Shown here piece by piece: positions 15,478 to 50,052 of a DNA stretch of 64,000 bases. Source of the stretch: Candidatus Omnitrophota bacterium (GTDB lineage: Bacteria > Omnitrophota > Gorgyraeia > Duberdicusellales > 4484-171); NCBI GenBank assembly GCA_021735655.1, contig JAIPGM010000007.1, positions 1 to 64,000 on the forward strand. The letters are read 5' to 3'. Position numbers and translations under genes: made by a program. Under the pieces are notes generated by a model. The model had not been told where the DNA came from and did no database searches. It worked only from the letters and a program-made list of their open reading frames with translations. The stretch's first letter is position 1. Each line of letters opens with the position of its first letter.

Positions 15478-16779
15478 TTAAAGCACCTCCAAATTAAGAT
15501 ATTTTCTTTTATATACGTTGCGAGTATCAAAAACAAACTTTGAGTTCTTTCTAATAAGTTCATAGTCTAGATAAGAGTGATCAGTAACAATAACCACACA
15601 ATTATATTTTTGCAAATTACTCTTACTAAGAGCTACCGCTTTTAAATTAATTCCGTTTATCTTTAAGTATGGTATCAACGGATCATAAAAGCTCACCTTG
15701 GATTTTTTGCTTAGCTTTTCAATAATATCTAAAGCCGGAGACTCTCTTAAATCTTTAACATCTTTTTTATAAGTAACCCCAACAATCAAAATCTTAGCTT
15801 TTCTTAAAGAAACGCCCCTAATTTTAAGTGATTTCTCAAGCCGCTCAACTACATATCTAGGCATAAAGTGATCAATGTAAGCAGCTGAATCAATCATCTT
15901 GGTCTTAAAACCCATCTTTTTTGCCTTCCAGGAAAGATACATTGGATCAGCCGGAATGCAATGGCCGCCAACGCCTGGCCCAGGATAAAAAGGCATAAAA
16001 CCAAAAGGCTTTGTCTTTGCAGCCTCAATTACCTCCCAAATACTTATCCCTAGCTTATGAGCTACAATAGCAAACTCATTAACCAGGGCAATATTTACCA
16101 AACGAAAGGTATTTTCGAGAAGTTTTGCGCTTTCAGCTACCTCAGGACTAGATACTGAAAATACCTGTTTAATAATCTTAGAGTACAAAGCTTTGGCTAG
16201 ACTGGTCGATTTAGGGGATAACCCACCAACGACTTTTGGTATTTTTGCCAAAGTATGTTTTTTATCTCCCGGGTTTATTCTTTCAGGAGAAAAACAAAGA
16301 AAAAAATCTTTTTCGCTCTCCAAACCAGACTTCTCAAGAATTGGTAAAACTACCTCTCGAGTAGTTGTCGGATAAGAGGTGCTCTCCAAAACGATTAGCT
16401 GAGACTTCCGTAAATACTTCTTAATTAACTTACTAGCTGCAACTACATAAGAAATATCCGGTATCTTTACCTTACGCAAAGGCGTTGGCACGCAAATAAT
16501 TAAAATATCAGAATCAGCCAAAACTCGCCTTTCAGTGGTCGGTAAAAACTTCTTAGCTTTAATCAACGCTTTAATCGTCTTTGGGTCAATATCAACGATA
16601 TACTGCTTTGCCTCTTTCAATTTGTTTACCCGTAAAAGATTATTATCGAAACCGTAAACAAAAAAACCTCGCTTTGCAAAATCTACCGCCAAAGGTAAGC
16701 CAACATAGCCCAGGCCGATAATACAAATTTTAGCCTTTTTTTTAATTATTTTTTCTTTAAGTACCTGGTAGTTACTCAT
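15478..16779 (-). CDS. UDP-N-acetyl-D-glucosamine/mannosamine 6-dehydrogenase family (WbpO/Cap5O/TviB-like)
   Basis: Nucleotide-sugar dehydrogenase with IGLGYVGLPLAV, the catalytic Cys in GGHCIP and a C-terminal UDP-binding domain. The start is probably the ATG at 16779 (MSNYQVLKEK); the track's longer ORF begins at a TTG. Confidence 0.75.
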   Translation of the reverse strand: MSNYQVLKEKIIKKKAKICIIGLGYVGLPLAVDFAKRGFFVYGFDNNLLRVNKLKEAKQYIVDIDPKTIKALIKAKKFLPTTERRVLADSDILIICVPTPLRKVKIPDISYVVAASKLIKKYLRKSQLIVLESTSYPTTTREVVLPILEKSGLESEKDFFLCFSPERINPGDKKHTLAKIPKVVGGLSPKSTSLAKALYSKIIKQVFSVSSPEVAESAKLLENTFRLVNIALVNEFAIVAHKLGISIWEVIEAAKTKPFGFMPFYPGPGVGGHCIPADPMYLSWKAKKMGFKTKMIDSAAYIDHFMPRYVVERLEKSLKIRGVSLRKAKILIVGVTYKKDVKDLRESPALDIIEKLSKKSKVSFYDPLIPYLKINGINLKAVALSKSNLQKYNCVVIVTDHSYLDYELIRKNSKFVFDTRNVYKRKYLNLEVL

Positions 16780-16798
16780 CTTGATTTTAAAAAGCAAT

Positions 16799-18139
16799 CT
16801 ATCTTCCGATTCCGATATATTCAAATCCTAGGTCACGAACCTTATCGCGATCAAACATATTTCTTCCGTCAACGATCAACGGATAACGCATCAACTTCTT
16901 AATCTTTTTTAAATCTAGCTTCTTAAACTCTTCCCATTCGGTCAACAAGCAAAGACAATCACTGCCCTTTACGGCCGCATAAGGATCTTTAGCAAACTTT
17001 AACTTAGCTGTTTTAAAGATATCCTTTGCCTCAGAATAGGCTTGGGGATCATAGGCTGAAATTATTGCTCCTTGTTTTAAGAATGAATTTACGATATCAA
17101 CCGAGGGAGCAAAACGCATATCATCGGTATCGGGTTTAAACGATAAGCCTAAAATTGCAATTTTCTTATTTTTTATAATCCAAAGCCGATCTTTTACCTT
17201 CTCGATGAAATTATGACGTTGACCTTGATTAATATTTTTAATCTCTTTCAATAAATTAAATTCATAACCTAACTTCTTAGAAATATAAAAAAATGCTTCG
17301 ATATCCTTAGGGAAACAAAAACCACCATAGCCTAAGCCAGCATCCAGAAAGTCTCTACCAATTCTCTTATCCATACCCATGGCTTGGGCTATTTTTTCAA
17401 TATCGGCTCCGGCTAAATCGCAAACTCGCGAAACCGCATTAATAAACGATACCTTGGTAGCTAAAAATGAATTGCAGGCATGCTTTATTAGCTCAGCCGT
17501 ATTAATATCAGTAACTATAATCGGGACCTTAATTTTGGCATAGATATCTTTTAATATATTTTCAGCCTTCGTTGACTCAACCCCGATAACTATTCTGTCC
17601 GGAGAGAAAAAATCATAGATTGCCTTACCTTCCCTTAAAAATTCAGGGTTAGAGGCAATATCAAAGTCTCGGCTATTTTTTTTGTAGCGAGAAATAATAT
17701 CCTTTATCTTCTTTCCGGTCTGAACCGGAACAGTTGATTTTCCAACAATTAACTTATAAGAATTAAGATTATTAGCAACTACCCGAGCAACATTCTCTAT
17801 GGCGCTAAGATCAGCTGAACCATCTTTCTGCGGTGGAGTACCGACAGCAATAAAAATCACTTGGCTCTTTCTAATTGCCTCAGTTAACGAGGCTGAAAAA
17901 ACCAAGCCACCACTCTTAATACCTTTTTTAACCAAAGGCTCTAGATCCGGCTCAAAGAACGGTACTTTTTTGGCTTTTAAACTCTGGATTTTTTTCTTAT
18001 CTTTATCAACACAAATTACCTTATGCCCTAATTCACAAAAACAAGCTGCAGCGACTAAGCCAACGTGACCAGCCCCAACCACACAAAGATTATACTTTTT
18101 AACTGTTTTATTCTTTTGCTTGTTTGACTTTACTTTCAT
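16799..18139 (-). CDS. ugd: UDP-glucose 6-dehydrogenase
   Basis: Blocks VVGAGHVGLV, GGFCFPKD and GLSFKPDTDDMR are present. The likely start is MKVKSNKQ at about 18139; the track ORF extends to 18202. Confidence 0.8.
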   Translation of the reverse strand: MKVKSNKQKNKTVKKYNLCVVGAGHVGLVAAACFCELGHKVICVDKDKKKIQSLKAKKVPFFEPDLEPLVKKGIKSGGLVFSASLTEAIRKSQVIFIAVGTPPQKDGSADLSAIENVARVVANNLNSYKLIVGKSTVPVQTGKKIKDIISRYKKNSRDFDIASNPEFLREGKAIYDFFSPDRIVIGVESTKAENILKDIYAKIKVPIIVTDINTAELIKHACNSFLATKVSFINAVSRVCDLAGADIEKIAQAMGMDKRIGRDFLDAGLGYGGFCFPKDIEAFFYISKKLGYEFNLLKEIKNINQGQRHNFIEKVKDRLWIIKNKKIAILGLSFKPDTDDMRFAPSVDIVNSFLKQGAIISAYDPQAYSEAKDIFKTAKLKFAKDPYAAVKGSDCLCLLTEWEEFKKLDLKKIKKLMRYPLIVDGRNMFDRDKVRDLGFEYIGIGR

Positions 18140-18152
18140 TAATACCTTTCTT

Positions 18153-20561
18153 TTAATAAGTAGTATAATATTGAGATTTAGCCCCCTCATGCGTCTTATC
18201 AAAAGTTATGCTCAAACTGGGAAAGGCCTTTAAAACAAATTCAAACCAAACAGTATAGTTTTTTCCGCCAACTGAGGCCCTCTTAACATCTAAACCGAGG
18301 TCAAGCCACCAACAATGCAAATCAGTTCTTACTTTATATTGCTGTTCAAATAAGTCGCCACGATTATATTCATAACGCAAATAACTTCCTAACTTTACCT
18401 TCGGGGTTAACTGATAGGAAAAATCAAAAGTTCCCTGAGTGTCAGTTACCCGGGTATAGCGATGGCCATAGGTAAAAGAGTACCTTTCCTTCTCTACTTC
18501 TTCACCAGCTTCAAACACCTTATATTTACCTTTGGTAGTAAAATCAAGATTAAAAGAAGTTATTCTTCCTAGCTTGTTACCGTCTGAATTAGCATCATAA
18601 GTAACGTTAGAGGTAAGTGATAAGCCCTCCTTAGGATAGATCTCTAAATCAGCGGTTATAGTAGTAATTCGACTATTAGCACCTTCAGGATTAATCGTAT
18701 AGTTAAGAGCCGGGCTAAAATAAACAAAGTCCCACTTCTCATTTTCCTTATTTTTAACCTGCAACTTATTGCTTAGAACAAAACTAACTGTCTCGGACCG
18801 ACTTAAGCTATCAATTCCATCAAATTGAAAAACATTAGCGTTAGCTACAGTTGGCTCATGAGCGTAACTATAAGTTATCTCAGGAGTTATAAGGTGGCGC
18901 ACCTTATCTATCTCCTCGCCAAAAATATCCCAATCCACATCAAAAACCTTATAAAGTCTGCTACTTAAAGATGTTCCGCTGGTAAAGCCAATTCGCCAAA
19001 TATCCTCATCGCCAAAAGCATTCTTAGAGTAATATATTGAATTTAAACCAATGTTAGGTGAAATACTAAGCCACTTTATCTTATCCGAGTAGCTTAAGGT
19101 ATTTTTACCGTAAAATCTAAAAGCATCATCATCCAAATCAGAATTAGCATTCTTTTTAGCTAGATTAGATATCTTTTCACTAGAGTTAAAGTAAAGCTTA
19201 CTGTTTCCTAACTGTTGACTGAAAAAATCATAGCTAAGCTCTGGAAGGTACTCACTCATGCTTTCGTAACGATTAAACCTTTTCTGAGTTAATAAAGATA
19301 AAGAAGAATTCTGAAAAGGATAACGCATGAGAAGGTAACTCTTGGGGTTAGGGTTAAGCTCATACTCTTCCTCAAAGAAATCTTTAACAAAAAACTCATC
19401 GGAAAATTTATGAAACTCAGCAATTATCGATAAGTTCTTTATCGGTTCACCGTCATAAGATAATTCTGCCTTGTAGCGATCGTCTTCTAAATATTTATCA
19501 GCCTTTCCTGAGCGATCACCGTGAACTTTAAAAAGACTATTTCGCTTGCCGATTTGATAAAGCTTATCTTGAATCATATAGTAACGAGCCAAGGCTTTAC
19601 CCATTTTTTTGCTCTCCATCTTATGGGTTAAACCAAACCCCCAGCCTCTTTCCTCATACCAATCAATATTAAACCAATCCGTATGCTCTTCATTGAGTTG
19701 ATAGCGCCAGCGAGTCAGTAAAAAGTAACCCAGCTCATCATTGTGCCCCGGAACTATCTCAGCCGGAAAAGAGGTATCCTTTAAAGACTGGGAAAAATAA
19801 GGAATATAGAATACCGGAACTTTCCCCACCTTTAAAGTTACTTTTCTGGCTACTACTTTATCGCCGGGATAAATGGTTACCTCTTTTGACACCATCCGGT
19901 AGTGCGGCTCAGCTAAATCACAAGTTGTCATGTAGCCGTTTCTCATTACCAATTTGTTTTTACCTATTTTTTCTCCTTCCGGAGCCTCTCCATAAAAAGG
20001 AGTACTCTCAAAACGAATATTATTTATATCAGCATTATAAGTATTAAAATCATAAACTGCTGTTTCACCATAGAGAACTGTTCCCTCTCTGATTACTTTA
20101 ATATTTCCAGTAATATTAGCGATATTAGTATTAACGTCAAAGATTCCCTCGTCACAGTAAAGCTCAACATCTTTCTGGACCATCTTCACATTGCCTTTAG
20201 CATAAATTTTACCCACACCGCGCTGAAAATCTATTTCATCAGCATCAACAATTACCGGTATTTTTTCACTACCAGAAGTGGCTTTTTGATCAGGCTTAGA
20301 GCTATCATCGGTCTTTTTGTCAGTTTTAGCTTCTTTAGCTTTTTCATCTTGTTTAACTTCTTGAACTAGAGCCTTATCTTCTAAAGGAGATACCTTTTCC
20401 TCTCTAGTTAAAGAAACCGCATCAAGAGTAGACTTAACTGTAGTCAATTTACTAACCAATATCCCTTTGTTTTTGGAAGCAGAAGATAGCGGCGTGGTTT
20501 CACTATTAGAAAAAGCAACCAGCGGTAAGAAAAAAACAACCAGTACAATCAGTTTTTTCAT
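18153..20561 (-). CDS. lptD: LPS-assembly outer-membrane protein LptD (OstA family)
   Basis: About 800 aa. Signal peptide MKKLIVLVVFFLPLVAFS. The OstA-like N-domain is PVIVDADEIDFQRGVGKIYAKGNVKMVQKDVELYCDEG...GNIKVIREGTVLYGE. The large beta-rich C-terminal region ends in an aromatic residue. Confidence 0.6.
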   Translation of the reverse strand: MKKLIVLVVFFLPLVAFSNSETTPLSSASKNKGILVSKLTTVKSTLDAVSLTREEKVSPLEDKALVQEVKQDEKAKEAKTDKKTDDSSKPDQKATSGSEKIPVIVDADEIDFQRGVGKIYAKGNVKMVQKDVELYCDEGIFDVNTNIANITGNIKVIREGTVLYGETAVYDFNTYNADINNIRFESTPFYGEAPEGEKIGKNKLVMRNGYMTTCDLAEPHYRMVSKEVTIYPGDKVVARKVTLKVGKVPVFYIPYFSQSLKDTSFPAEIVPGHNDELGYFLLTRWRYQLNEEHTDWFNIDWYEERGWGFGLTHKMESKKMGKALARYYMIQDKLYQIGKRNSLFKVHGDRSGKADKYLEDDRYKAELSYDGEPIKNLSIIAEFHKFSDEFFVKDFFEEEYELNPNPKSYLLMRYPFQNSSLSLLTQKRFNRYESMSEYLPELSYDFFSQQLGNSKLYFNSSEKISNLAKKNANSDLDDDAFRFYGKNTLSYSDKIKWLSISPNIGLNSIYYSKNAFGDEDIWRIGFTSGTSLSSRLYKVFDVDWDIFGEEIDKVRHLITPEITYSYAHEPTVANANVFQFDGIDSLSRSETVSFVLSNKLQVKNKENEKWDFVYFSPALNYTINPEGANSRITTITADLEIYPKEGLSLTSNVTYDANSDGNKLGRITSFNLDFTTKGKYKVFEAGEEVEKERYSFTYGHRYTRVTDTQGTFDFSYQLTPKVKLGSYLRYEYNRGDLFEQQYKVRTDLHCWWLDLGLDVKRASVGGKNYTVWFEFVLKAFPSLSITFDKTHEGAKSQYYTTY

Positions 20562-20562
20562 A

Positions 20563-21471
20563 TTACTGTTTCTCAAGCTGCTCCTTAACCAGCAAGGCGG
20601 CTCCGACTATCCCCGGCTGTTTTAACTGAGCCTTGAGAACTTTTAAATTCTTCACTTGAGGCCACATGGCCTGTTGTCTTATCACCTGTAAAAGATATGG
20701 TCTAAACAAACCTAAGGCTCCAGACACCCCTCCACCTAGGATAATCGCCTCGGGGTTAAATACATTAACCATGCCCGATAAAAACTTACCTAAATTATAT
20801 GAAAATTCCTTCCAAAGCATAATAGCCTGTTTTTCACCTTTTAGGCCCCTTTGAAATATCTCACTTACTTCCTTAATCTTAGTTTTATTTCCTTTGAGTT
20901 GCCTATAGCGCTTTAAGAGATAACCATTACCAGTATAAGTCTCAATACAGCCTCTGGCTCCACAGCCACAAAGGTTTCCCTTTAAAGTTAAAGGTACATG
21001 ACCTAACTCAGCAGCGCTGGTTCTCCCAGTTAGAAGCTTGCCATCAATTAATACTGCTCCGCCTAAGCCAGTGCCGAGAGTTAAAAAAATAGCTTGTTTA
21101 AACCCCCGACCAGCACCACAGCGAGCCTCAGCAAGACCAAAAAGATTAGCATCATTACCTATAGCTACCGGAAGCTTGAGCTGTTTGATAAGCACCTCTT
21201 TTAAGGGAAAGTTCTTCCAACCAGGAATGTTGGGAAGATAATAGATGAATCCTTTTTTTGTATCGATTATGCCGGGGGCACCAATACCAAGGCCTTTAAT
21301 TGAAAAACCTTTAAAATCCTTTAATAAAGATTTAAGGTTCTGGATAAAAACGGTTTTTTTTCTTAAGTCAGCCGATTGGTAAATTCTTTCTTTAACTACT
21401 ACCCCCTTGGGGCTTACCAACCCAGCTTTTATATAAGTACCACCCCAATCAATGCCTAAAAAGACTGCCAC
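20563..21471 (-). CDS. ROK-family sugar kinase (glucokinase-like)
   Basis: 302 aa with LGIDWGGTYIKAGLV, the ROK signature region LGTGLGGAVLIDGKLLTG and the Cys motif CGCGARGC. Confidence 0.75.
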   Translation of the reverse strand: MAVFLGIDWGGTYIKAGLVSPKGVVVKERIYQSADLRKKTVFIQNLKSLLKDFKGFSIKGLGIGAPGIIDTKKGFIYYLPNIPGWKNFPLKEVLIKQLKLPVAIGNDANLFGLAEARCGAGRGFKQAIFLTLGTGLGGAVLIDGKLLTGRTSAAELGHVPLTLKGNLCGCGARGCIETYTGNGYLLKRYRQLKGNKTKIKEVSEIFQRGLKGEKQAIMLWKEFSYNLGKFLSGMVNVFNPEAIILGGGVSGALGLFRPYLLQVIRQQAMWPQVKNLKVLKAQLKQPGIVGAALLVKEQLEKQ

Positions 21472-34698: not shown

Positions 34699-36078
34699 TT
34701 ATTGAGTCAATAAAGACTCATAAACCTCATAATAATGCTTAGCGGCTACTTCCCAGGAAAAATTATAGGTAACTATCTCATCTAAAATTTTCTGCCATTG
34801 ATCTTTATGATCAAATACCTTCTTAGCTCGATCTAAGGTTAAAAGTAAGTCCTCGGCAGCATAATTTTTAAAAACAAATCCGCCACCGCCGCAAGAAGCA
34901 TCGACAACCGTATCAACCAAGCCTCCAGTATGATTAACTATTGGTACAGTTGCATACTTATAACTGATCATCTGGGAAAGCCCGCAAGGCTCAAAACGTG
35001 AAGGCAATAAAAAAGCATCACAACCAGCATAAATTTTATGAGCTAAACTCTCATTAAAAGTTAAATTAAGCGAAAAAGAATTTTTGAATTGTTCACTCTT
35101 AGCCTTAAGCATCTGATGATACTGCTCATCACCTAAACCAAGAATAACCAGCTGATATTTACCAAGCATTTCATCTAAAGCCTGATGAAGAATATCAACT
35201 CCCTTTTGTTCGGCTAAACGGCTAACCATCCCAAGCAAAAAAATATCTTCATCAACCTTAAAACCAAGCTCTTTTTGGAGACCCTTCTTATTTATTTTCT
35301 TATCCGAAAGGGACTTTGGACTATATTTCTTATCGATAAGGTTATCTATTGCCGGGTCCCAAATATGATAATCAATAGCATTAAGAATACCAATTACCTT
35401 ATCGCCTCTTTCGGCTAGCACGCCCTCTAGGCCACAGCCAAATTCAGGAGTTTTAATCTGTTTAGCATAGGTAGGGCTTACCGTATTCACTAGGTCGGAA
35501 AAAATAATCCCCCCTTTAAGTAAATTGATCTTATCGTAAAACTCCAAGTATTCAGGACGAAAATATTTTTCAGCTATCCCTAAAAGAGAAAATTTATCCT
35601 TATCAAAAATACCCTGATAAGCAACATTATGAATTGTTAAAACCGTCTTGGTTTTAGCATAAAAAGGATCGTCGCCGTGTTTTAGCTTAAGCGCAATATT
35701 AACCCAAGAAGTCTGCCAATCATTGCAATTAATTATATCGGGCTGGAAATCTATTTCCTTTAGAACTTTCAATACTTGATTACTAAAAAAAGTAAACCGT
35801 TCTAAATTATCAGGATAGTCTCCAGAAGGAGTGCCATAGATTCCGGAACGAAGGTAAAATTCGTCATTCTTGATAAAGAAAAACTCTAACTTACCCTTTC
35901 GGCTAATCCCAAAACCATCACCCATTTGCTCAGGTTTTATGTTTTTATAAAGCGGTAGGAAAACTTTTACTTCACACCCAGACTCAACTAAGGCCGCCGG
36001 TAAAGCTGCAACGACATCAGCCAATCCACCAGTCTTAGCAAAAGGGAAAACCTCAGATGAACAAAAAGCTATTTTCAT
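34699..36078 (-). CDS. glgA: glycogen/starch synthase, ADP-glucose type (GT5)
   Basis: 459 aa. The N-terminal SSEVFPFAKTGGLADVVAALP is the KTGGL motif of bacterial GlgA. Confidence 0.8.
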   Translation of the reverse strand: MKIAFCSSEVFPFAKTGGLADVVAALPAALVESGCEVKVFLPLYKNIKPEQMGDGFGISRKGKLEFFFIKNDEFYLRSGIYGTPSGDYPDNLERFTFFSNQVLKVLKEIDFQPDIINCNDWQTSWVNIALKLKHGDDPFYAKTKTVLTIHNVAYQGIFDKDKFSLLGIAEKYFRPEYLEFYDKINLLKGGIIFSDLVNTVSPTYAKQIKTPEFGCGLEGVLAERGDKVIGILNAIDYHIWDPAIDNLIDKKYSPKSLSDKKINKKGLQKELGFKVDEDIFLLGMVSRLAEQKGVDILHQALDEMLGKYQLVILGLGDEQYHQMLKAKSEQFKNSFSLNLTFNESLAHKIYAGCDAFLLPSRFEPCGLSQMISYKYATVPIVNHTGGLVDTVVDASCGGGGFVFKNYAAEDLLLTLDRAKKVFDHKDQWQKILDEIVTYNFSWEVAAKHYYEVYESLLTQ

Positions 36079-38588
36079 TGAATATTCTCCAAATCACCCC
36101 AATTATTACCAGCCTTTAAGTTAACTTTAACCGGAATTTCTAAATCAACCGCTCCCTCCATCTGCTTTCGGACTAAAGCCGAAACCCGACTTAGTTCACT
36201 CTTAGGAAGATCAAAGATTAATTCATCATGAATTTGAATAGTAAGTTTTGCCTGTAATTTTTCCTGCTTTAATTGATTGTAAATTTTAATCATCGCGACC
36301 TTAATAATATCAGCGCAAGAGCCTTGAATCGGAGCATTAACTGCTTGACGAAGGGCAAACTCTCGTAACTTAAGATTAGGACTCTTTACCTCTGGTATCC
36401 TTCTTTGGCGACCCAAAATTGTCGTAACAAAGCCTTGTTTGTTGGCTTGAGCTTTAACCTCTTCTGAATAAGCCTTAACTCCGGGGTAACGCTTGAAATA
36501 ATCATCAATAAAATTTTGAGCTTCAATATTGCTAATTTTTAATTCACGAACTAGGCCGTATGAGCTCATACCATAAATAATCCCAAAATTTACTGTCTTG
36601 GCAACATTGCGTTCTAACTCCGAAACCTTATCATTCTTCTTACCAAAAAGTAATGACGCAGTATAAGTATGAATATCTAAGTTATCTCTAAAAGCCTTAA
36701 TTAGCTCTTTATCTTTAGAAAGATGAGCCAAAATCCGCAACTCAATTTGTGAATAGTCTCCAGAAAGAATACAACCATCAGGGCTCTTTGGAACAAAGGC
36801 TCTTCTCAAGGCATTTGAAAACTCGCCCTTAACCGGAATGCTTTGCAAGTTAGGTCCTGAGCTTGAAAGTCGGCCAGTTTGAGCCTTGGTTTGATGAAAT
36901 TGAGTATGTAACATTCCTTTATTGGCCTTAACTTCTTGAATCAACGGCATAATATAGGTATTTTTAAGCTTATTTAAATGCCGGTGCTCAATAATGTCCT
37001 TGGCTATTGAATGATCTAAAGAAAGTTTTTCTAAAACTTCTTCATTGGTTGAATACCCGGTCTTAGTTTTTTTTACTGGCGGTATGCCCAACTCCTGAAA
37101 AAGGACTAAACTCAGCTGTTTAGGAGAGTTTAAGTTAAACTCATGCCCAGCTGCTTTAAAAACCGCTGCCTGATGGGACATGACTTTTGCTTCAACCTCC
37201 TCTAATAACTTAGTTAACACCTTAGCCTGGACCTTAACTCCTTGAGCTTGCATCTGGCTTAAAACTTCAATTAGCGGCACTTCTACTTCAAAAAAAAGTT
37301 TATCCAAAGACTGTTTTTTTAATGTCTCTAAGAATAACTGATAAAGTTTATAGATAAAATAAGGTTTAAGCTCATCAGGTATTTGATTAGTATGCTCTCC
37401 TAAATAGTGATTAACAACTGCCTCTAGCTCATAATCAATGAGACTTGAATCTAAGAGATAAGCGGCTATTTTGGTATCAAACCAGACCCCTTGAAGTTTA
37501 CTGATCGCCGACGCAGAATCAGCCATCTTTTCCCTAAAACCATGAGATAACTTCTTAATTTTCTGATCAGTAAGAATATCTTCCGCTTCACTTAAAGCCA
37601 GTTTATAAATACAGTTTTTAAATTGATCAAAAATAAAAATATCATTACCGCTAACCACTAAAGGCAACGGCTCTTTAACCAAATTTTCTTTTGCCTTTTT
37701 ATCTAAACTAGTTTTTACCGCTAAATCTATTTCCAGCTTTGGCGCCGGAAGATCTTTTAAAAATGCCTTAAATTCAAATTCGCTAAACATATCATACAAA
37801 CCTTTAGTATCAATCTGATCTATTTTCAAATCATCACAACTCAATTCAAGCGCCGGCGTCTCTAGGGTCACCAACTCTTTGCTTAAGAAAACAGTTTCTT
37901 TACTTTCTTTCAATATAGTTTGCATTTTTGGTGAAACTTTATCTAAATTATTAAAAATATTCTCAACGGTTTTAAATTCTTTTACTAATTTGCTAGCGCC
38001 GACTTTTCCAATGCCTCTAGCCCCAGGAATATTGTCGCTGGCATCTCCGGCCAAAGCGAGATAGTCAATAATTTCTTCTGGCTTAAAACCATTTTCTTTA
38101 ATAAAATCGCTACGGTTAGTAAACTTGTCTTTGTGGTAACTATAAATACTTACCTCATCGTTCTCAAGAAGTTGATAAAGATCCTTATCAGAAGAAACAA
38201 TTACAACTTGTTTTTTACGACTGGTTGCCTGTTTACAAAGAGTAGCAATAACATCGTCGGCTTCAAAATTTTTCTTTTCGACTATTTTAATACCCAAATA
38301 AGAAATTAGTTTTTTCACCAAAGGGATTTGAGTCCCTAGGTCATCGGGCATCGGCGGACGCTGAATCTTATATTCTTTAAACTTATCCTGCCGAAAGGTT
38401 TTTCGGGAAACATCAAAACAAACTCCCAAATATGACGGATTATACTTTGAGATTATCTTTTTTAAAGTTTGATACACTCCGTATACTGAACCGGTAGGCA
38501 CTCCTTGTGAGTTTGAAAGTTTAATTGCAAAGAAAGAACGATAACATAAGGACGTCCCATCAACGAGATAAACTGTTTCCTTGGGCAT
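36075..38588 (-). CDS. polA: DNA polymerase I
   Basis: 837 aa. It has the 5'-3' exonuclease N-domain (VYLVDGTSLCYRSFFA) and a family A polymerase C-domain (RRAFVP, DYSQIELR, QIHDELIFD). The central 3'-5' exonuclease region appears reduced. Confidence 0.9.
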   Translation of the reverse strand: MPKETVYLVDGTSLCYRSFFAIKLSNSQGVPTGSVYGVYQTLKKIISKYNPSYLGVCFDVSRKTFRQDKFKEYKIQRPPMPDDLGTQIPLVKKLISYLGIKIVEKKNFEADDVIATLCKQATSRKKQVVIVSSDKDLYQLLENDEVSIYSYHKDKFTNRSDFIKENGFKPEEIIDYLALAGDASDNIPGARGIGKVGASKLVKEFKTVENIFNNLDKVSPKMQTILKESKETVFLSKELVTLETPALELSCDDLKIDQIDTKGLYDMFSEFEFKAFLKDLPAPKLEIDLAVKTSLDKKAKENLVKEPLPLVVSGNDIFIFDQFKNCIYKLALSEAEDILTDQKIKKLSHGFREKMADSASAISKLQGVWFDTKIAAYLLDSSLIDYELEAVVNHYLGEHTNQIPDELKPYFIYKLYQLFLETLKKQSLDKLFFEVEVPLIEVLSQMQAQGVKVQAKVLTKLLEEVEAKVMSHQAAVFKAAGHEFNLNSPKQLSLVLFQELGIPPVKKTKTGYSTNEEVLEKLSLDHSIAKDIIEHRHLNKLKNTYIMPLIQEVKANKGMLHTQFHQTKAQTGRLSSSGPNLQSIPVKGEFSNALRRAFVPKSPDGCILSGDYSQIELRILAHLSKDKELIKAFRDNLDIHTYTASLLFGKKNDKVSELERNVAKTVNFGIIYGMSSYGLVRELKISNIEAQNFIDDYFKRYPGVKAYSEEVKAQANKQGFVTTILGRQRRIPEVKSPNLKLREFALRQAVNAPIQGSCADIIKVAMIKIYNQLKQEKLQAKLTIQIHDELIFDLPKSELSRVSALVRKQMEGAVDLEIPVKVNLKAGNNWGDLENIQ

Positions 38589-39915: not shown

Positions 39916-40671
39916 TTATAGAGAATTCTTAACTATTTGGGCAAATGAACTACTATCTAAAGATGCTCCTCCGACCAAAGCTCCATCAATATCAGCTTCT
40001 TGCATCAGCTCTTTAATGTTTGATGGCTTAACGCTTCCTCCGTAAATAATTCTCAAATTAGCCGCTAGCTGATCAGAGTACTGTTTAGCTAACCAGTTCC
40101 GAATAAACTTATGGACTTCTTCAGCCTGTTGAGGGGTCGCTGTCTTTCCAGTGCCAATAGCCCATACTGGCTCATAAGCAAGAACTAACCTTTCGACACT
40201 TTCAGCTTCTAAGCCTTTAAGGCCTCCAGAAAGCTGCTCCTCGATCACCGAGATAGTCTTATTTGCTTCACGCTCCTCTAAGGTCTCACCAACACAAACA
40301 ATTGGAATTAGATTTTCAGCTTGTGTGGCCTTTATTCGTTTATTAACCATCTCATCGGTCTCAAAAAAATATTTCCTTCGCTCTGAGTGACCAATGATAG
40401 CATAAAAACAACCAGCATCTTTAAGCATTGCTGCTGAAATTTCGCCGGTGAAAGCTCCGGAATTTTCCCAATATACGTTTTGGGCCCCTAACTTAATATT
40501 AGAATTTTGCAAAATATCAGAAACTTCTGAAAGGGCTACGTAAGTCGGACATACTGCTACATCAATTGTGTCCACATCAACCAACTCCCGTTTTAAACTA
40601 TTAACTAATTCTAAAGCTTCGGGAATGGTTTTCTGCATTTTCCAGTTTCCGGCTATAAATGGCTTTCTCAT
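39916..40671 (-). CDS. tpiA: triosephosphate isomerase
   Basis: 251 aa with AGNWKM, IGHSERR and AYEPVWAIGTGKTAT. Confidence 0.95.
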   Translation of the reverse strand: MRKPFIAGNWKMQKTIPEALELVNSLKRELVDVDTIDVAVCPTYVALSEVSDILQNSNIKLGAQNVYWENSGAFTGEISAAMLKDAGCFYAIIGHSERRKYFFETDEMVNKRIKATQAENLIPIVCVGETLEEREANKTISVIEEQLSGGLKGLEAESVERLVLAYEPVWAIGTGKTATPQQAEEVHKFIRNWLAKQYSDQLAANLRIIYGGSVKPSNIKELMQEADIDGALVGGASLDSSSFAQIVKNSL

Positions 40672-40736
40672 AATTAAATCTCCTTAATGAAACTTAGCTT
40701 TTTTGAAACCAAAGGCTCAAAAAAGCATTAGTTGAA

Positions 40737-41933
40737 TTATTTATCACTTAAGGCGGCTATTCCCGGCAAAACCTTTCCTTCTAAATACTCTAAGGATGCT
40801 CCGCCTCCGGTTGAAATGTGAGACATCTTATCACTTAAATTAAATTTAGCCACAGCTGCAGCAGTATCTCCACCGCCAATAACTGAGGTAACTTGGCTCT
40901 CGGCCGTTGCCTTAGCTACTGCTAAAGCTAATTCTTTTGTGCCTTGAGCAAACTTTTCATTTTCAAAGATTCCTGCTGGACCATTCCAAACAACTGTTTT
41001 ACTTTGAGCTATTTTATCACAAAATAATTTAATTGTCTTTGGGCCGATATCAACACCGATCCAGCCTTCAGCTATTGTTTGATCAGCAGTAACCTTTACA
41101 TTTAAAGACTCTTTAATGTTGTCAGTAATTACGTGATCTAAGGGCAAGACTAATTCGACTTTACTTTCTTTTGCCTTAGCCAGTATCTTCTCAACAATCG
41201 GGATACTATCAAGCTCAACCCTTGAAGAACCAATTTCAACACCCTTTACCTTCATAAAGGTATAGGCCATGGCTCCGCCGATTATAATACAGTCAGCGCG
41301 TTCAAGCATATTCTCAATAACCGGGATCTTATCAGCAACCTTAGCCCCACCAAGAATGAACAAGAAAGGCTTCTCAGCTTGAGTTAAAACTTTCTGAAAA
41401 TACTCTATCTCTTTTTGCACTAAAAAGCCTGAAACTGATTCAAGGTAATGAGTTACCCCTTCCGTTGAGGCGTGAGCCCGATGACAAGTTCCAAAAGCAT
41501 CATTAACAAATACATCACCCAAAGAGGCTAACTGCTTAGCAAAATCAGGATCATTCAGTGTTTCTTGCTCATAGAATCTTAAATTTTCAAGCAAGACAAC
41601 TTCGCCGACAGCTAAACTTTTAACCTTGGCTTTTACATCCTCACCAATACAATCTGAAAGCATCTCAACTGGCTTAGCTAACAATTCACTAAGACGTTCA
41701 GCTACTGGTTTAAGGCTATACTCTGGTTTTTTCTGACCCTTTGGTCTTCCCAAGTGGCTCATTAAGACTAATTTTGCCTGCTTGGATAAACAATAGTTTA
41801 TTGTCTCAAGAGCTGCCTTAATTCTTGAATCGTCAGTGATCTTCTGATGCTCATCTAGCGGCACATTAAAGTCTACTCGCATCAAAACAGTCTTGCCCTC
41901 TAGATTAATATCGGTTACTGATTTCTTATTCAT
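40737..41933 (-). CDS. pgk: phosphoglycerate kinase
   Basis: 398 aa with RVDFNVP, SHLGRP and GGGASLE-like C-terminal blocks. Confidence 0.95.
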   Translation of the reverse strand: MNKKSVTDINLEGKTVLMRVDFNVPLDEHQKITDDSRIKAALETINYCLSKQAKLVLMSHLGRPKGQKKPEYSLKPVAERLSELLAKPVEMLSDCIGEDVKAKVKSLAVGEVVLLENLRFYEQETLNDPDFAKQLASLGDVFVNDAFGTCHRAHASTEGVTHYLESVSGFLVQKEIEYFQKVLTQAEKPFLFILGGAKVADKIPVIENMLERADCIIIGGAMAYTFMKVKGVEIGSSRVELDSIPIVEKILAKAKESKVELVLPLDHVITDNIKESLNVKVTADQTIAEGWIGVDIGPKTIKLFCDKIAQSKTVVWNGPAGIFENEKFAQGTKELALAVAKATAESQVTSVIGGGDTAAAVAKFNLSDKMSHISTGGGASLEYLEGKVLPGIAALSDK

Positions 41934-41955
41934 ATTTTCCTTTTAAGTTAACTTC

Positions 41956-42951
41956 TTACTTAATCATATAGGGAATTAGATCAACCACTCGACATGAATA
42001 TCCCCATTCATTGTCATACCAAGAAAGAAGCTTAAAAAATCCCTGACCTAACTTAATTATACTCAAAGAATCATAAACTGAAGAATGAGTATTCCCGATT
42101 ACGTCTGCTGAAACTATTGGATCTTGGCAATACTCTAAAATTCCCTTCATCGGGCCATCAGCGGCTTTTTTCATGGCACTGTTAACCTCTTCTATCGAAG
42201 GATCTTTAACTAGCTTTACAGTTAAATCAACAATCGAACCGGTTGGAACCGGAACTCGCATAGCCAGCCCATTAAGCTTTCCGTCTAATTCAGGAATTAC
42301 TAAGCCAACTGCCTTAGCTGCCCCGGTAGTAGTCGGAATAATTGAAAGACCGGCTGAACGAGCTCGTCTTAAATCCGAATGCGGAAAATCAAGAATTCTT
42401 TGATCATTAGTATAAGCATGTACGGTTGTCATCAAACCTTCGACGATTCCAAAATTATCCTGCAAAACTTTCGCTATTGGTGCAAGGCAATTAGTAGTAC
42501 AAGATGCATTAGAAACGATCAAATCTTCATCTTTTAAGCTTTCGGTATTAACACCCAAAACGATTGTGTTGTCAACTTTATCTTTAGCCGGCACCGTGAG
42601 GATAGCCTTTTTCGCTCCGGCTTCAATATGCATAGCAACCTGATCACGCTTTCTGAAAACTCCAGTTGATTCAACAACTAAATCTACCCCTAATTCTTTC
42701 CAAGGAAGATTCTTAGGATCTCTTTCAGAAAGTATCTTTATTTCCTTGCCATCAACTACAATTGCCCCTTCTTTTGCGCTCACTGATTTAGAAAACTTTC
42801 CATATACTGAGTCATACTTTAAAAGATGGGCTAAAGTTTTCGCATCAGTTAAATCATTGATAGCGACTACTTCAATATCTTTTCTTTCACTAATTACCTT
42901 AAAAACATTTCTACCAATTCTGCCAAAACCATTAATTGCTACTTTTACCAT
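41956..42951 (-). CDS. gap: glyceraldehyde-3-phosphate dehydrogenase
   Basis: 331 aa with INGFGRIGR and the catalytic ASCTTNCLAP. Confidence 0.95.
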   Translation of the reverse strand: MVKVAINGFGRIGRNVFKVISERKDIEVVAINDLTDAKTLAHLLKYDSVYGKFSKSVSAKEGAIVVDGKEIKILSERDPKNLPWKELGVDLVVESTGVFRKRDQVAMHIEAGAKKAILTVPAKDKVDNTIVLGVNTESLKDEDLIVSNASCTTNCLAPIAKVLQDNFGIVEGLMTTVHAYTNDQRILDFPHSDLRRARSAGLSIIPTTTGAAKAVGLVIPELDGKLNGLAMRVPVPTGSIVDLTVKLVKDPSIEEVNSAMKKAADGPMKGILEYCQDPIVSADVIGNTHSSVYDSLSIIKLGQGFFKLLSWYDNEWGYSCRVVDLIPYMIK

Positions 42952-43005: not shown

Positions 43006-44010
43006 TTATTTTATCTCTACTTTCTTCAAATAACTACTGGCTACCTCTGGCGAGGTAGGATTTATATAGAAACCAGTTCCCCATTCAAAACCAGCAATCT
43101 TACTCAATTTAGGCATAACTTCAACATGCCAATGATACCATTCTTGACTTTCAGCTTTGTCAACGGGGTTGGTATGAATAATAAAGTTATAGGGTGGATT
43201 CCCTAAAACTAGTTTAATTCTAGTAAGCACCTCTTTCAAAATACGGGCAAAATTATCTATGGCTGCTTCGGAAATATCGGTAAAATCAGCCTGATGCTGT
43301 TTAGGCATAATAACTATCTCAAAAGGAGAACGCGAGGCAAAAGGACAAAAAGCAATAAAATCTTTGTTCTCACAAACCTCCCGATGTCGATGTTCAATTT
43401 CCTGTAAGATCATATCGCAGAATATACAGCGCTCCTTATAGTCAAAGTGACGATGAGAGCATTTAAGTTCTTCATCTACCCTCCGGGGAACAATTGGCAA
43501 TGAAATAAGCTGAGTGTGGCTATGCTCAAGTGATGCTCCGGCGACTAGACCGTAATTTTTAAAAATAAGAACATATTTAAATCGCTCATCTTTACTTAGA
43601 GCAATGCTTCGACGCTTATAAACTCCGATTACTTTTTTAATCTGCTCAATAGTTAGGTCAGCTAACTGCTTAGAGTGATCAGTTCCCTCAATAATAACTT
43701 CATGCTTTCCTACGCCGTTCATCATATCAAAAATGCCTACGCCAGTTTTACCTAGGTTGTCTTCATCAGCTAAGGCCGGATATTTATTAGGTACGGTGCG
43801 TGTCTGCCAACCAGTAGTGTCGGGCTTGCTACCTTTCGGACGATCAGCGTCAACCTCAGGCGGAGTCATTTTTTCCTTTCCTTCACAAAAAGGACACATC
43901 CCTTCTTTAATATCAAGCTTCTCTACCTCATAATTATCAGGGCCAAAGTTCTTTTCGGTGCTGATAATAACCCAACGAGCCGTAATCGGATCTAATCTTA
44001 ATTCACCCAT
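43006..44010 (-). CDS. GalT-like HIT-superfamily nucleotidyltransferase/phosphorylase, catalytically intact paralog
   Basis: The probable start is MGELRLDPITARWVII at about 44010. Zn ligands are CPFCEG and HEVIIE. The active-site motif HSHTQ aligns with E. coli GalT HPHGQ. Confidence 0.6.
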   Translation of the reverse strand: MGELRLDPITARWVIISTEKNFGPDNYEVEKLDIKEGMCPFCEGKEKMTPPEVDADRPKGSKPDTTGWQTRTVPNKYPALADEDNLGKTGVGIFDMMNGVGKHEVIIEGTDHSKQLADLTIEQIKKVIGVYKRRSIALSKDERFKYVLIFKNYGLVAGASLEHSHTQLISLPIVPRRVDEELKCSHRHFDYKERCIFCDMILQEIEHRHREVCENKDFIAFCPFASRSPFEIVIMPKQHQADFTDISEAAIDNFARILKEVLTRIKLVLGNPPYNFIIHTNPVDKAESQEWYHWHVEVMPKLSKIAGFEWGTGFYINPTSPEVASSYLKKVEIK

Positions 44011-44011
44011 T

Positions 44012-45037
44012 TTAGAGTTTAACCTCGCGTAAAAATTTAGCAGCCTCCTCCGGAGAGGTAGGATTAATATAAAAACCGGTTCCCCATTCAAAGCCAGCGA
44101 CTTGAGTCAAACGAGGAATAATTTCAATGTGCCAATGGTAATCTTGTTCTATTGTACCCCAATAACCTACCTTAGCCCGTCGATAGGGTGCTATATGCAA
44201 CATATAGTTATAGGGCGGATCTGAAAGGGCAACCTTAATTCTATGTAAAACTTCCTTAAGTGTTTTCGCTAGGCTAGAAATATCTTTATCGCTTATTTTG
44301 CTAAAATCAGCACAATGCTCTTTAGGTAAAACCCAAGTCTCAAAAGGAAACCGTGAAGCATAGGGAGCAATTGCTACAAATCCGTCTTTATCTAAAATTA
44401 ACCTTTGTTTATCGTTAACTTCCTGAGCAATAATGTCACAATAAACGCACCGATCTTTGTAGTCAAAATAACGTTTAGCTCCTTCTAGCTCCCCCTTTAC
44501 GCTCTTGGGACAAGCCGGAAGAGCAATCAACTGACTGCGAGAATGTCCCGAGCCAATAGCACCAGCAGCAAGTTTATGATTTTTGAATATTAATACATAT
44601 TTAAAACGAGGATCTTTTTCAAGATCTAAAATCCTGGCCCGGTACATCTGTAAACTCTCAGCGATTTCATCCGGACTTAATTCATCTAAAGAACTTACAT
44701 GTCTTGGGCTCTCGACAATAACCTCATGAGCCCCAACTCCATTCATCATATCGTAAATGCCGTGTGGCCGCTTGTCTAGCTCTTCGGCACTGTGCAAAAG
44801 CGGTACAATACTTGGGATAACTCTTGACTGCCAACCAGGTTTATTTGGTTTACTATTTTTTTCTCTGCTAGCAGCTACTTCTTCAGGAGTATATTCTTCA
44901 TGGCCTTCACAAAAAGGACAACTCTCAGAAAAAGCATCAACTTGATCGTTAACCTTAAACTCTTTGGGACGTTTGGCTCGCTCGGTAGCAATAATAACCC
45001 AACGGCCGATGATCGGATCTTTTCTTAATTGAGGCAT
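44012..45037 (-). CDS. GalT-like HIT-superfamily paralog with the nucleophilic His replaced by Arg (HSRSQ)
   Basis: 341 aa and collinear with the downstream paralog. Blocks CPFCEG, HEVIVE, RFKYVLIFKN and GFEWGTGFYINPTSPE are conserved. The HxHxQ motif reads GHSRSQ. Confidence 0.6.
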   Translation of the reverse strand: MPQLRKDPIIGRWVIIATERAKRPKEFKVNDQVDAFSESCPFCEGHEEYTPEEVAASREKNSKPNKPGWQSRVIPSIVPLLHSAEELDKRPHGIYDMMNGVGAHEVIVESPRHVSSLDELSPDEIAESLQMYRARILDLEKDPRFKYVLIFKNHKLAAGAIGSGHSRSQLIALPACPKSVKGELEGAKRYFDYKDRCVYCDIIAQEVNDKQRLILDKDGFVAIAPYASRFPFETWVLPKEHCADFSKISDKDISSLAKTLKEVLHRIKVALSDPPYNYMLHIAPYRRAKVGYWGTIEQDYHWHIEIIPRLTQVAGFEWGTGFYINPTSPEEAAKFLREVKL

Positions 45038-48101: not shown

Positions 48102-48671
48102 CTATAAACTTTCTATCGTAGCCATAACTTTTTGAGTAATGGCCTGATAGTCATCGCCTTCTTTTACGGTATTGACCTTTGCAAAAATAACCTTTATTTT
48201 GCCCCGACGAAAAAACTTTGCCCGCTTAGGAAGGACTTTGTCAGTTCCATAAATTCTTGCCGCAATTACCGGAACCTTTGCTTTTCTAGAAAGAAAACCA
48301 ACCCCTGAATTAGCTTCATTAAAACTGCGCCCTCGAGTTCCTTGAGGAAAAATAAGTAAGGCCTTAGTTTTAAGCGTCTTTAAGGCCAACCGCATAATCC
48401 TTATATCAGATTTTCCCCGTTTTATTGGAATTGCCCCTACGTCTTTTAAATACAAAGAAAGCAATTTATTAGTAAACAACTCCTCTTTAGCCATAAAAGC
48501 TATTCGCTTAGGACAAGAAACAGCCAAAACCGGCGGGTCTAAATTACTTAAATGGTTAGCAGCTAGAATGAAAGGTTGAGCGGCCGGGAAAACATCTTTT
48601 CCTTTTATCTCTAAAGCAAAAAATGTTTTAAAAAAACAACCAGCTAAAATAACTGAAACTCTATAGAGCAT
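48102..48671 (-). CDS. plsC: 1-acyl-sn-glycerol-3-phosphate acyltransferase
   Basis: 189 aa with the acyltransferase motif NHLSNLDPP (HxxxxD) and FPQGTR. Confidence 0.75.
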   Translation of the reverse strand: MLYRVSVILAGCFFKTFFALEIKGKDVFPAAQPFILAANHLSNLDPPVLAVSCPKRIAFMAKEELFTNKLLSLYLKDVGAIPIKRGKSDIRIMRLALKTLKTKALLIFPQGTRGRSFNEANSGVGFLSRKAKVPVIAARIYGTDKVLPKRAKFFRRGKIKVIFAKVNTVKEGDDYQAITQKVMATIESL

Positions 48672-50052
48672 AGATCATTTTTGTACCAAAACTCATCAGC
48701 TTGTCAGATTGTTTTTTACTTTTACTTTCAGCGTAAACTCTCACAATTGGTTCAGTACCTGACTTCCTGAACATAAGCCAACAGTCGCCGGCGATAAGTT
48801 TTATACCATCAAGAGTATTTACCCGTTCCACCTTCTTACCACAAATAGCCGTTGGCAACTTCATGTCGCTTAAACTTTTTTTAACGCTCTTTAAAGGAAT
48901 TGATGCTCGACTATAGTAATAATGTCCGTATTGAGCGTAGAACTTAGACAGAAGCGTGTTAAATTTTTTCTTTTCAACAGCGAGCATCTCTAAAAGTAAT
49001 AAAAAAGCTGCGGAGCCATCTCGCTCCGGGACGTATCCCTTGACGCCGATTCCACCGGCTTCCTCTCCGCCAATAGCAATAAGGTTCTGCTCGAATAAAC
49101 TAGATATATATTTAAATCCAACTGGAGTCTCATAGCAAGCTACCCCTAAAGAAACAGCTACTTTATCGATGACATTACTGCCAACAACAGTTTTCCCAAT
49201 TGCCCCTTGAGCTTTTCGGTTCTTGACCATATGTATCGCCAAAAGCGGTAAGATAACTTGAGCATTAATGTAATTACCGTGGCCGTCAAACATGGCAATT
49301 CTGTCAGCATCACCGTCAAGGACTAAACCCAAATCATACTTCCCTTTTTTCATTATCTTAGTCATTTCAACCAAATTACTCTCAATCGGCTCAGGGTTAA
49401 TTACGCCGAAAGAAGGATTATATTCATTATGTAAATAGTCTATCTTTATTTTACTCGGATCTAACACTTGTTCAGCGAAGGTACCGGCGGAACCATACAT
49501 ATTGTCGACTAAAACTTTTAGTTTGAGATTCCTGATCTTATTTAAACCTACAAATTTTTTCAAAAAAGCTATGCAGTCTTTAGTTAAGTCTTTTATCTCT
49601 AACAACTTATTTTTTCTAGCTATCGCTTCATCAAGAAAGCGTACCTTTTTCTTAAACATCAATCGCTCAACGCTATCGGTTAAAGACTTATCGGCTGAAC
49701 CGCCACGAGGTGTCTTTATTTTTAAACCATTAAACTTAGCCGGATTATGAGATGCCGTAATCATTATTCCTAAATCATATTTCTTATGTAGACAATGAAA
49801 ACTTACTACTGGAGTGGGCACATCTTTATCGGAAAGTACAACTTTTATCTTATTTGCCCCTAAAACTAAACCTACTGTTTTGGCAAATTCGGCTGAAAGA
49901 AATCTACGATCATAACCGATTACAACCTTTTTCTTGCCTTTTTTAGTTTTATTTAAATAGTCAGCTATTGCCTGTGAGACAACTTTTAGATTTTCAAAAG
50001 TAAAATCTTGGGCAATAACTGCTCTCCATCCATCGGTACCGAATTTAATCAT
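48661..50052 (-). CDS. phosphoglucomutase/phosphomannomutase family protein
   Basis: 463 aa. It shows the active-site Ser loop TASHNPAKFNG, the Mg loop DGDADR and the sugar-binding GGEEAGG. Confidence 0.85.
   Translation of the reverse strand: MIKFGTDGWRAVIAQDFTFENLKVVSQAIADYLNKTKKGKKKVVIGYDRRFLSAEFAKTVGLVLGANKIKVVLSDKDVPTPVVSFHCLHKKYDLGIMITASHNPAKFNGLKIKTPRGGSADKSLTDSVERLMFKKKVRFLDEAIARKNKLLEIKDLTKDCIAFLKKFVGLNKIRNLKLKVLVDNMYGSAGTFAEQVLDPSKIKIDYLHNEYNPSFGVINPEPIESNLVEMTKIMKKGKYDLGLVLDGDADRIAMFDGHGNYINAQVILPLLAIHMVKNRKAQGAIGKTVVGSNVIDKVAVSLGVACYETPVGFKYISSLFEQNLIAIGGEEAGGIGVKGYVPERDGSAAFLLLLEMLAVEKKKFNTLLSKFYAQYGHYYYSRASIPLKSVKKSLSDMKLPTAICGKKVERVNTLDGIKLIAGDCWLMFRKSGTEPIVRVYAESKSKKQSDKLMSFGTKMIYAL

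Follow-up and report, generated by a model that had tools for sequence, protein, structure and literature searches.

In a window of 64,000 nucleotides from a Candidatus Omnitrophota bacterium (contig JAIPGM010000007.1, positions 1 to 64,000), two adjacent genes on the minus strand, here called copy A and copy B, encode paralogues from the GalT (galactose-1-phosphate uridylyltransferase) branch within the HIT (histidine triad) superfamily. Judged from their residues, the two products would quite probably form an obligate heterodimer, a class I GalT-type nucleotidyltransferase with one working composite active site. The active site of this family sits between two chains, with the H-x-H-x-Q motif and the nucleotide pocket acting in cis and an arginine arm and a sugar loop reaching in from the partner in trans. 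By alignment, A and B have each lost the complementary half of this common site. What was observed directly is how the residues are distributed and conserved, that the genes are inherited together, and that a natural fusion of the two exists. The earlier note on this DNA had raised the idea of an active/inactive heterodimer, and the reciprocal loss in 47 pairs, mirrored phylogenies, tight gene coupling and natural A-B fusion described below all speak for it.

The pair and its main elements are as follows.

44012..45037, minus strand: copy A, GalT-like/ADP-glucose-phosphorylase-like paralogue without the nucleophile, 341 amino acids (aa); proposed non-catalytic trans-acting subunit
43006..44010, minus strand: copy B, the canonical paralogue of 334 aa, which is proposed to be the catalytic subunit
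44969..44980, minus strand: N-terminal arm of A, R20-A-K-R23, equivalent to E. coli Arg28/Arg31 and human Arg48/Arg51; proposed to reach in trans into the B site
44804..44812, minus strand: A residues S76-I77-V78, degenerated nucleotide-binding triplet (N-K-Y/F in B and the single-copy relatives)
44531..44545, minus strand: A motif H165-S-R167-S-Q169, Arg codon CGC at 44537-44539; the Zn ligand His165 and Gln169 are kept
44060..44098, minus strand: C-terminal loop of A, AGFEWGTGFYINP (GFEWGTGFY), with F316, E317 and Y323 equivalent to E. coli Tyr316, Glu317 and Gln323
44005..44020, minus strand: A/B junction, AAACTC TAA A ATG GGT, a single base between the A stop and the B start
43942..43953, minus strand: N-terminal arm of B, K20-N-F-G23, both trans-acting arginines gone
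43780..43788, minus strand: B residues N75-K76-Y77, intact nucleotide-binding triplet (from the alignment)
43510..43524, minus strand: B motif H163-S-H165-T-Q167, nucleophilic His codon CAC at 43516-43518

A probable divided active site

In class I GalTs and in the Arabidopsis protein At5g18200, the pocket is completed by the neighbouring subunit (bioRxiv 10.64898/2026.09.13.751320). The glucose-1-phosphate (hexose-phosphate) site of human GALT combines Lys334-Gln346 of one chain with Gln188 and Asn173 of the other, and Arg48, the counterpart of E. coli Arg28 and of Arg20 in A, is contributed by whichever chain does not supply the HxHxQ motif of that site (PMC5081055). UDP-glucose bound to E. 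coli GalT also touches Arg28, Arg31, Gly159 and Ser161 (PMC5081055). Because the active site spans the dimer, the half that each paralogue kept can be read from sequence alone.

The residues were compared in an alignment of the A clade (n = 42), the B clade (n = 47) and single-copy relatives (n = 29, whose consensus served as reference), using A numbering. The single-copy relatives carry the full set, that is the trans arm (R20, R23) and trans loop (F316, E317, Y323) together with the cis residues N76, K77, Y/F78, A80, A160, S161, H165, H167 and Q169. The A clade keeps R20 and R23 (41/42 each) and F316/E317 (42/42), and the sugar-binding residues of its C-terminal loop AGFEWGTGFYINP are invariant. 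In its cis half, N76 is Ser in 34 and Asn in 8 of the 42 sequences, K77 has become I/K/E/V, the aromatic residue 78 S/A/V, A80 L/V/I/F and S161 G/S/A/T, and H167 is Arg in all 42. The B clade shows the reverse, with the cis residues kept in 46-47 of 47 sequences (N 47/47, K 46/47, F/Y 47/47), K/N/E/H at position 20 and G/K/R/A at position 23. Agreement of A with the single-copy consensus is 14% over seven cis positions, 98% over two trans positions and 86% over 162 background columns; for B the corresponding values are 99%, 11% and 79%. Each homodimer would be short of something essential, and only an A:B dimer would have one complete site.

In the proposed heterodimer, B would contribute the cis half (Zn-His163, the nucleophile His165, Gln167, Asn75/Lys76/Tyr77 and Ser160) and A the trans half (Arg20, Arg23, Phe316, Glu317 and Tyr323). 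The mirror site, with A in cis and B in trans, would be dead, having Arg in the nucleophile column, a drifted nucleotide pocket and no arginines from B. Physical association of the two chains is what we infer from these patterns, as is the reaction, which would probably be a ping-pong nucleotidyl transfer between nucleoside diphosphate (NDP)-glucose, probably ADP-glucose, and phosphate or hexose-1-phosphate, with a place in alpha-glucan and central sugar-phosphate metabolism.

The loss of the nucleophile itself is clear. The H-x-H-x-Q motif, in which the second His is the nucleophile, is present in B (H-S-H-T-Q) and absent in A (H-S-R-S-Q), so that A is a homologue of the class I GalT branch that cannot be filed as its enzyme. 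The Arg codon of A (CGC) and the His codon of B (CAC) lie one transition apart. In the alignment to solved structures, the partner of Arg167 is His186 in At5g18200 (1Z84) and a Gly in 2H39, whose aligned sequence departs from 1Z84 at this point and which we take to be the H186G nucleophile mutant; in a MAFFT alignment it stands opposite His166 of E. coli GalT. The earlier note had claimed that Arg replaces the nucleophile of A while the Zn-ligand His165 is kept and B retains its His, and these alignments bear it out. It had also suggested looking for another His of A in the nucleophile column, and none stands there in the structure-based or the MAFFT alignment.

The H-x-R motif occurs in 120/120 of the best homologues of A (82-57% identity). 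Arg167 is the sole strictly conserved residue specific to A, which argues that it was selected rather than tolerated. As a speculation, it may bind phosphate or a sugar-phosphate at the dead site, where the sugar-contact residues (Asn153/Gly159 of A, Phe308/Glu309/Tyr315 of B) are invariant. Equally speculative is a role in negative design: facing Arg20/Arg23 of a partner, Arg167 may disfavour A:A dimers, where it would clash with these arginines, as it would not with the arginine-less arm of B.

The two genes are collinear paralogues, 49% identical end to end (BLASTP, E = 2e-125), with CPFCEG and AGFEWGTGFYINPTSPE in common and HEVIVE in A matched by HEVIIE in B; both open reading frames (ORFs) and every motif quoted in the earlier note were found again. 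The mechanical ORF of B reaches 81 nt further upstream, to a TTG at 44091 inside A. The ATG at 44010 (product MGELRLDP...) is taken as the true start, since it agrees with the N-termini of homologues. In a promoter and terminator scan of 38.5-50.5 kb, sites were no more numerous than in shuffled sequence and none lay between A and B. A six-residue loop within A 289-299 (about 44141-44173), with conserved W293, T295, I296 and D299, is present in A and in most single-copy relatives and deleted in every B copy.

Family, inheritance and a natural fusion

Both proteins score above the cut-off for Pfam PF01087 and PF02744, the GalT N- and C-terminal domains (IPR001937). Their best match in the PDB is the ADP-glucose phosphorylase At5g18200 (E = 1.7e-70 for A, 2.3e-63 for B), the match to E. 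coli GalT being far weaker (about 1e-22); the human and Pyrobaculum GalTs, like that of E. coli, are much more distant from both than ADP-glucose phosphorylase is. An AlphaFold2 monomer model of A (mean predicted local distance difference test, pLDDT, 73; predicted template modelling score, pTM, 0.79) retrieved 1Z84/2H39 first in Foldseek (template modelling score, TM, 0.85) and class I GalTs next. The two-domain GalT fold is thus assigned to A by model and sequence and to B by sequence; the trans elements of A, including the C-terminal loop, have low pLDDT in the monomer model. The structural Zn site (CxxC, His and the motif His) is present as C40, C43, H113 and H165 in A and as C39, C42, H112 and H163 in B, and is kept in at least 41/42 A-clade and in 47/47 B-clade sequences. 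The label of ADP-glucose phosphorylase type given in the earlier note agrees with the best sequence and fold matches. The reaction that it implies, ADP-glucose + Pi = glucose-1-phosphate + ADP by way of an adenylyl-His intermediate, is a prediction with indirect backing from the GlgA and GH57 fusions and neighbourhoods described below.

Among 80 related genome loci surveyed for the tandem, 46 contain both copies complete, always A then B and on the same strand, and nearly all of these are labelled Omnitrophota by the source names of the homologues. The downstream copy has His at the nucleophile in 46/46. Position 167 of the upstream copy is Arg in 41/46, His in 3/46 and Cys in 2/46. The His motifs (HQHLQ/HEHLQ) and the Cys motifs (HSCSQ, HTCSH) are nested in the Arg clade and their pocket is otherwise degenerate. 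The three His copies (L031, L033, L044) lie inside that clade and still have S76, I77, S78 and F80, so their site is degenerate too, and toggling between CGY, CAY and TGY codons at position 167 is likely. An Arg copy stands alone in L017, L023 and L065, where a contig end removes the neighbour. In L076 (HPRWH, 38% identity) the Arg copy is solitary although it stands in the middle of its contig; it is only distantly related and falls outside the A clade. In single-copy relatives from Anaerolineae, Acidobacteriota, Desulfobulbaceae, Sumerlaeota and other groups the His is retained.

Orthologues of A are on average 60% identical to the window copy and those of B 58%, and mean column entropy is 1.22 and 1.29, respectively; by these measures A is not relaxed and is under selection as strong as that on B. 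A neighbour-joining tree (no support values) resolves A and B as two monophyletic clades that mirror each other in their internal branching, which implies that the pair has been inherited together.

A natural fusion, P0121 (599 aa), encoded in the metagenome-assembled genome (MAG) GCA_003558915.1, combines an A-like with a B-like half at a locus, pgm-plsC-rpsA-tyrS-[gene]-gap-pgk-tpi-secG, that matches the tandem loci. Retained in its A half are Arg20/Arg23, the second metal site and AGFEWGTGIYINP (the AGFEWGTG loop); the CxxC/His Zn site is gone, as is the HxRxQ motif, in place of which stands GGPYSN. The B half follows a Ser/Lys-rich linker and starts at CPFC, with no N-terminal arm, and keeps all cis residues (N-K-F...H-x-H-x-Q). 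P0121 has lost exactly the parts that the heterodimer model would call dispensable. Another protein, P0126 (871 aa), consists of two fused GalT-like units, both with HxHxQ and the first with Arg20 but Gln at 23; it is possibly a single-chain dimer.

In the wider family, the nucleophile column of 150 representatives (50% clustering, HMM-anchored alignment, HMM being a hidden Markov model) holds His in 137 and R, Y, I, V, C, S or L in the others, and these nucleophile-less variants have lost further cis residues. A rule that every nucleophile-less member adjoins a canonical copy was considered and rejected, as three of three checked were solitary. Solitary nucleophile-less proteins (L084 1626-2672, L085 369-1409 and L087 5001-6026; motifs HSYSH, HSISE and HPVSY) lie beside a baeRF-family/DUF123 pair, beside an acetate kinase gene, and between a pantothenate kinase gene and a Usp gene, respectively. 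Loss of the nucleophile is therefore recurrent in the family, the proposed tandem heterodimer solution being specific to the Omnitrophota clade.

Alternative readings of the pair

It is rather unlikely that A and B form separate homodimers, with B as the enzyme and A as a non-catalytic protein that shares its operon and has a binding or regulatory role, its ligand being a sugar phosphate, a nucleotide sugar or phosphate. The solitary nucleophile-less relatives P0139, P0143 and P0131, which have no adjacent canonical copy, would fit such a division, as would the retention in A of Asn153, Gly159, Gln169 and both metal sites and its gain of an invariant Arg. However, a B homodimer would miss the conserved trans arginines and an A homodimer would hold Arg20/Arg23 without purpose, and the complementary losses, the mirrored trees and the covalent fusion P0121 also count against it. 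The earlier note had further considered an altered chemistry for A, such as that of a phosphorylase. In such a case A might transfer or phosphorolyse directly in a single step, Arg167 stabilising the transition state in place of a covalent His intermediate. That Arg167 is strictly conserved and that Zn-His165, Gln169 and Asn153/Gly159 are retained would suit it, but the pocket of A is lost or variable (Asn76 to Ser, Lys77 to I/K/E/V, 78 to S/A/V, Ser161 variable) and the arm that B would offer as partner is likewise without arginines. To our knowledge, every characterised enzyme of the HIT superfamily uses a His nucleophile. With the conserved nucleotide-binding residues Asn76, Lys77 and Tyr/Phe78 and the conserved Ser161 lost along with the nucleophile, the claim is not supported and such an activity is very improbable. 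Least credible is that A is a duplicate drifting to loss in which the Arg is incidental: its catalytic residue is indeed gone, but its ORF is intact in all loci, it is at least as conserved as B, and the Arg persists in 120/120 homologues down to 57% identity. Decay of A was accordingly rejected as contradicted by the conservation data.

Homologues of the pair bear the source names galactose-1-phosphate uridylyltransferase or DUF4931, and both proteins narrowly exceed the cut-off of TIGR00209 galT_1 (109.5 bits for A and 116.6 for B against 102.1), as would be expected of a Leloir enzyme acting on UDP-glucose and galactose-1-phosphate. This assignment is nevertheless improbable. Both fall far below the cut-off of NF008724 (126 and 140 bits against 448), ADP-glucose phosphorylase is much closer, and the position of E. 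coli Asp78, on the uracil side, is Lys in B. Among the neighbouring genes that could be identified (gap, pgk, tpi, glgA, GH57, glgC and glgP), there is no galactose-pathway gene here or in the 80 related loci, where galK and galE were not searched for. For A the database name galactose-1-phosphate uridylyltransferase is wrong, and for B it probably is as well.

Several points weigh against an obligate heterodimer. Part of the cis positions was picked once the differences were known, and Fisher P values overstate the significance of the contrast because the sequences counted are related and do not represent independent events; the percentages of agreement are accordingly descriptive. For Arg23 (E. 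coli Arg31), the role in trans is carried over from its neighbour Arg20/Arg28. The trans sugar loop of B (F308, E309, Y315) is invariant and A retains Asn153, Gly159 and Gln169, so the dead site may still bind something; simple loss does not account for the strict conservation of Arg167. Some upstream copies have His (L031, L033, L044) or Cys (L034, L069) in place of the Arg. P0139, P0143 and P0131 lack the nucleophile yet are solitary, with no adjacent canonical copy and in unrelated contexts, which means that an inactive copy does not always need an adjacent partner. Finally, the fusion P0121 comes from one MAG contig only and an assembly error is possible; its A half is 36% identical to A of the window, with many specific changes, and this divergence argues for a real gene.

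Genomic setting and related enzymes

The gene order around the pair is tyrS-A-B-gap-pgk-tpi-secG-TPR-polA-glgA, which agrees with the earlier description of gap-pgk-tpi downstream and of pgm and glgA nearby. The neighbouring features are listed below.

41956-42951, minus strand: gap, in the block 39916..42951 immediately downstream of the pair
40737-41933, minus strand: pgk, same block
39916-40671, minus strand: tpi, same block
34699..36078, minus strand: glgA (GT5 starch/glycogen synthase), about 7 kb downstream of the pair
48661..50052, minus strand: phosphoglucomutase/phosphomannomutase-family gene, about 4 kb upstream (from its translation)

In L083 the syntenic counterpart of this last gene has annotated PGM_PMM domains, and the gene is also syntenic in L002, L011 and L051. 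In most tandem loci gap follows the pair, often with pgk and tpi, and in six related loci glgA stands directly after gap, between gap and pgk. In the window, glgA overlaps the end of polA (36075-38588) by 4 nt (36075-36078), so that its translation appears to be linked here to that of DNA polymerase I.

The 56 ORFs of 150 aa or more in the window all lie on the minus strand, and every 2-kb bin has a negative guanine-cytosine (GC) skew (-0.14 to -0.26), an unusually long co-directional stretch. The window contains a second tandem paralogue pair (15478-16824 and 16799-18202, minus strand) of the UDP-glucose/GDP-mannose dehydrogenase family, overlapping by 26 nt, in an apparent surface-polysaccharide cluster with an aminotransferase, a carbamoyltransferase and an epimerase. 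An ORF of 807 aa (18153-20576, minus strand) has no Pfam match at E <= 1e-5.

A link to alpha-glucan metabolism, suggested in the earlier note, fits both the fusions and the neighbourhoods of relatives. In P0157 (814 aa; L089 2361-4805) a canonical GalT-like domain is fused to a GT5 glycogen synthase, and in P0191 (875 aa; L090 1279-3906) and P0205 (858 aa), which come from different 50%-identity clusters, to a GH57 domain. Single-copy relatives stand beside GH57, glgA, glgC or glgP in L041, L046, L049, L055, L068, L070-L073 and L075, those of L041 and L055 adjoining glgC. Together with the best match to ADP-glucose phosphorylase, the GlgA and GH57 fusions and neighbourhoods point to NDP-glucose and alpha-glucan metabolism, not to the Leloir pathway. 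Judged from these comparisons, the substrate is probably an NDP-glucose, most plausibly ADP-glucose; as to the specific reaction of the pair, belief and doubt are about balanced.

Among window ORFs of at least 120 aa, no match to GlgC, GlgP or GlgB of E. coli or to a GH57 domain was found, and the earlier note had hinted that the pair replaces GlgC. However, about 10 of 14 Omnitrophota MAGs from Ace Lake have an annotated GlgC (PMC8542988 Table S5). With GlgC in most of these MAGs and glgC beside the relatives of L041 and L055, the pair is a weak candidate for a GlgC substitute and was set aside as such. The reactions of GlgA and an ADP-glucose phosphorylase sum to that of glycogen phosphorylase, so that net synthesis from ADP and glucose-1-phosphate would need an unusually high ratio of glucose-1-phosphate to phosphate (Pi).

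A further reading, unlikely as a whole, combines two proposals. The dead site of A:B would have been rebuilt as a sensor that sets the activity of the live site, with Arg167, Asn153/Gly159 of A and Phe308/Glu309/Tyr315 of B binding sugar phosphate or phosphate. GlgC would make ADP-glucose and pyrophosphate (PPi), and A:B, acting as a phosphorylase, would return glucose-1-phosphate and ADP; the net cycle, ATP + Pi -> ADP + PPi, would supply pyrophosphate to a fermentative cell. HppA, a PPi-driven pump, is encoded in the Ace Lake Omnitrophota MAGs. 'Glycogen cycling' has been discussed for C. thermocellum (PMC8863071), and the cycle proposed here would have the same net stoichiometry in a glycogen-free version. 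If true, it would explain why the pair is tied to gap-pgk-tpi rather than to glycogen genes.

Returning to the heterodimer, several known systems resemble it in part. At5g18200 (1Z84, 1ZWJ, 2H39) shares with the pair the CxxC + His + His Zn site, a second CxxC metal site and, towards the C-terminus, the GFE.GTG.YINP loop; with B it also shares the H-x-H-x-Q motif. Two identical chains make up the plant enzyme, and its two sites are equivalent (bioRxiv 10.64898/2026.09.13.751320). By contrast, the cis and trans functions of the pair would be split over paralogues of 49% identity, one of them with Arg in the nucleophile column, and its activity is a prediction. Class I GalT (E. coli 1HXP/1HXQ/1GUP; human 5IN3) has the same fold and dimeric active-site logic, and its Zn ligands, nucleophile His, Gln, Asn153, Gly159, Ser161, Arg28/Arg31 and Tyr316/Glu317 have counterparts in the alignment of the pair. 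Identity to it is only about 25%, however, NF008724 failed, Asp78 is Lys in B, and no galactose-pathway context was identified.

A division of labour between paralogues is familiar from GlgC/GlgD of Firmicutes and from plant ADP-glucose pyrophosphorylase with its small and large subunits. In these duplicated sugar-nucleotide enzymes, catalysis stays with one paralogue while the other serves as its partner. The likeness is one of analogy only, as these enzymes have an unrelated nucleotidyltransferase fold, no covalent intermediate and no similarly cross-chain active site. The ADP-glucose synthase of C. thermocellum likewise needs two gene products (PMC8863071). The human GALT Gln188Arg heterodimers resemble A in that an Arg is brought into the HxHxQ motif. 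There it faces Arg48 of the opposite chain, the proposed cause of partial dominant negativity (PMC5081055), which suggests by analogy how Arg167 of A could meet the N-terminal arm of a partner. Unlike the Arg of A, Gln188Arg is not a fixed, selected state but a disease mutation, and it affects a homodimeric enzyme at a position two residues away from the nucleophile.

The pair belongs to a known enzyme family and shows an arrangement new to it. The literature searched describes no HxR GalT-like paralogue, no heterodimeric GalT and no link between GH57 or GlgA and GalT-like proteins, and no paper was found there that joins 'pseudoenzyme' and 'histidine triad'. In the parts of a 2024 review of prokaryotic alpha-glucan enzymes that were available, the family is not mentioned. 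If the heterodimer is real, it would be the first case we have found of a GalT-branch HIT enzyme being reported to form an obligate heterodimer in which one subunit is a pseudoenzyme. Taken with the silence of that review, as far as its available parts go, the fusions to and neighbourhoods with glycogen genes suggest that the family may perform a perhaps overlooked step in bacterial NDP-glucose turnover.

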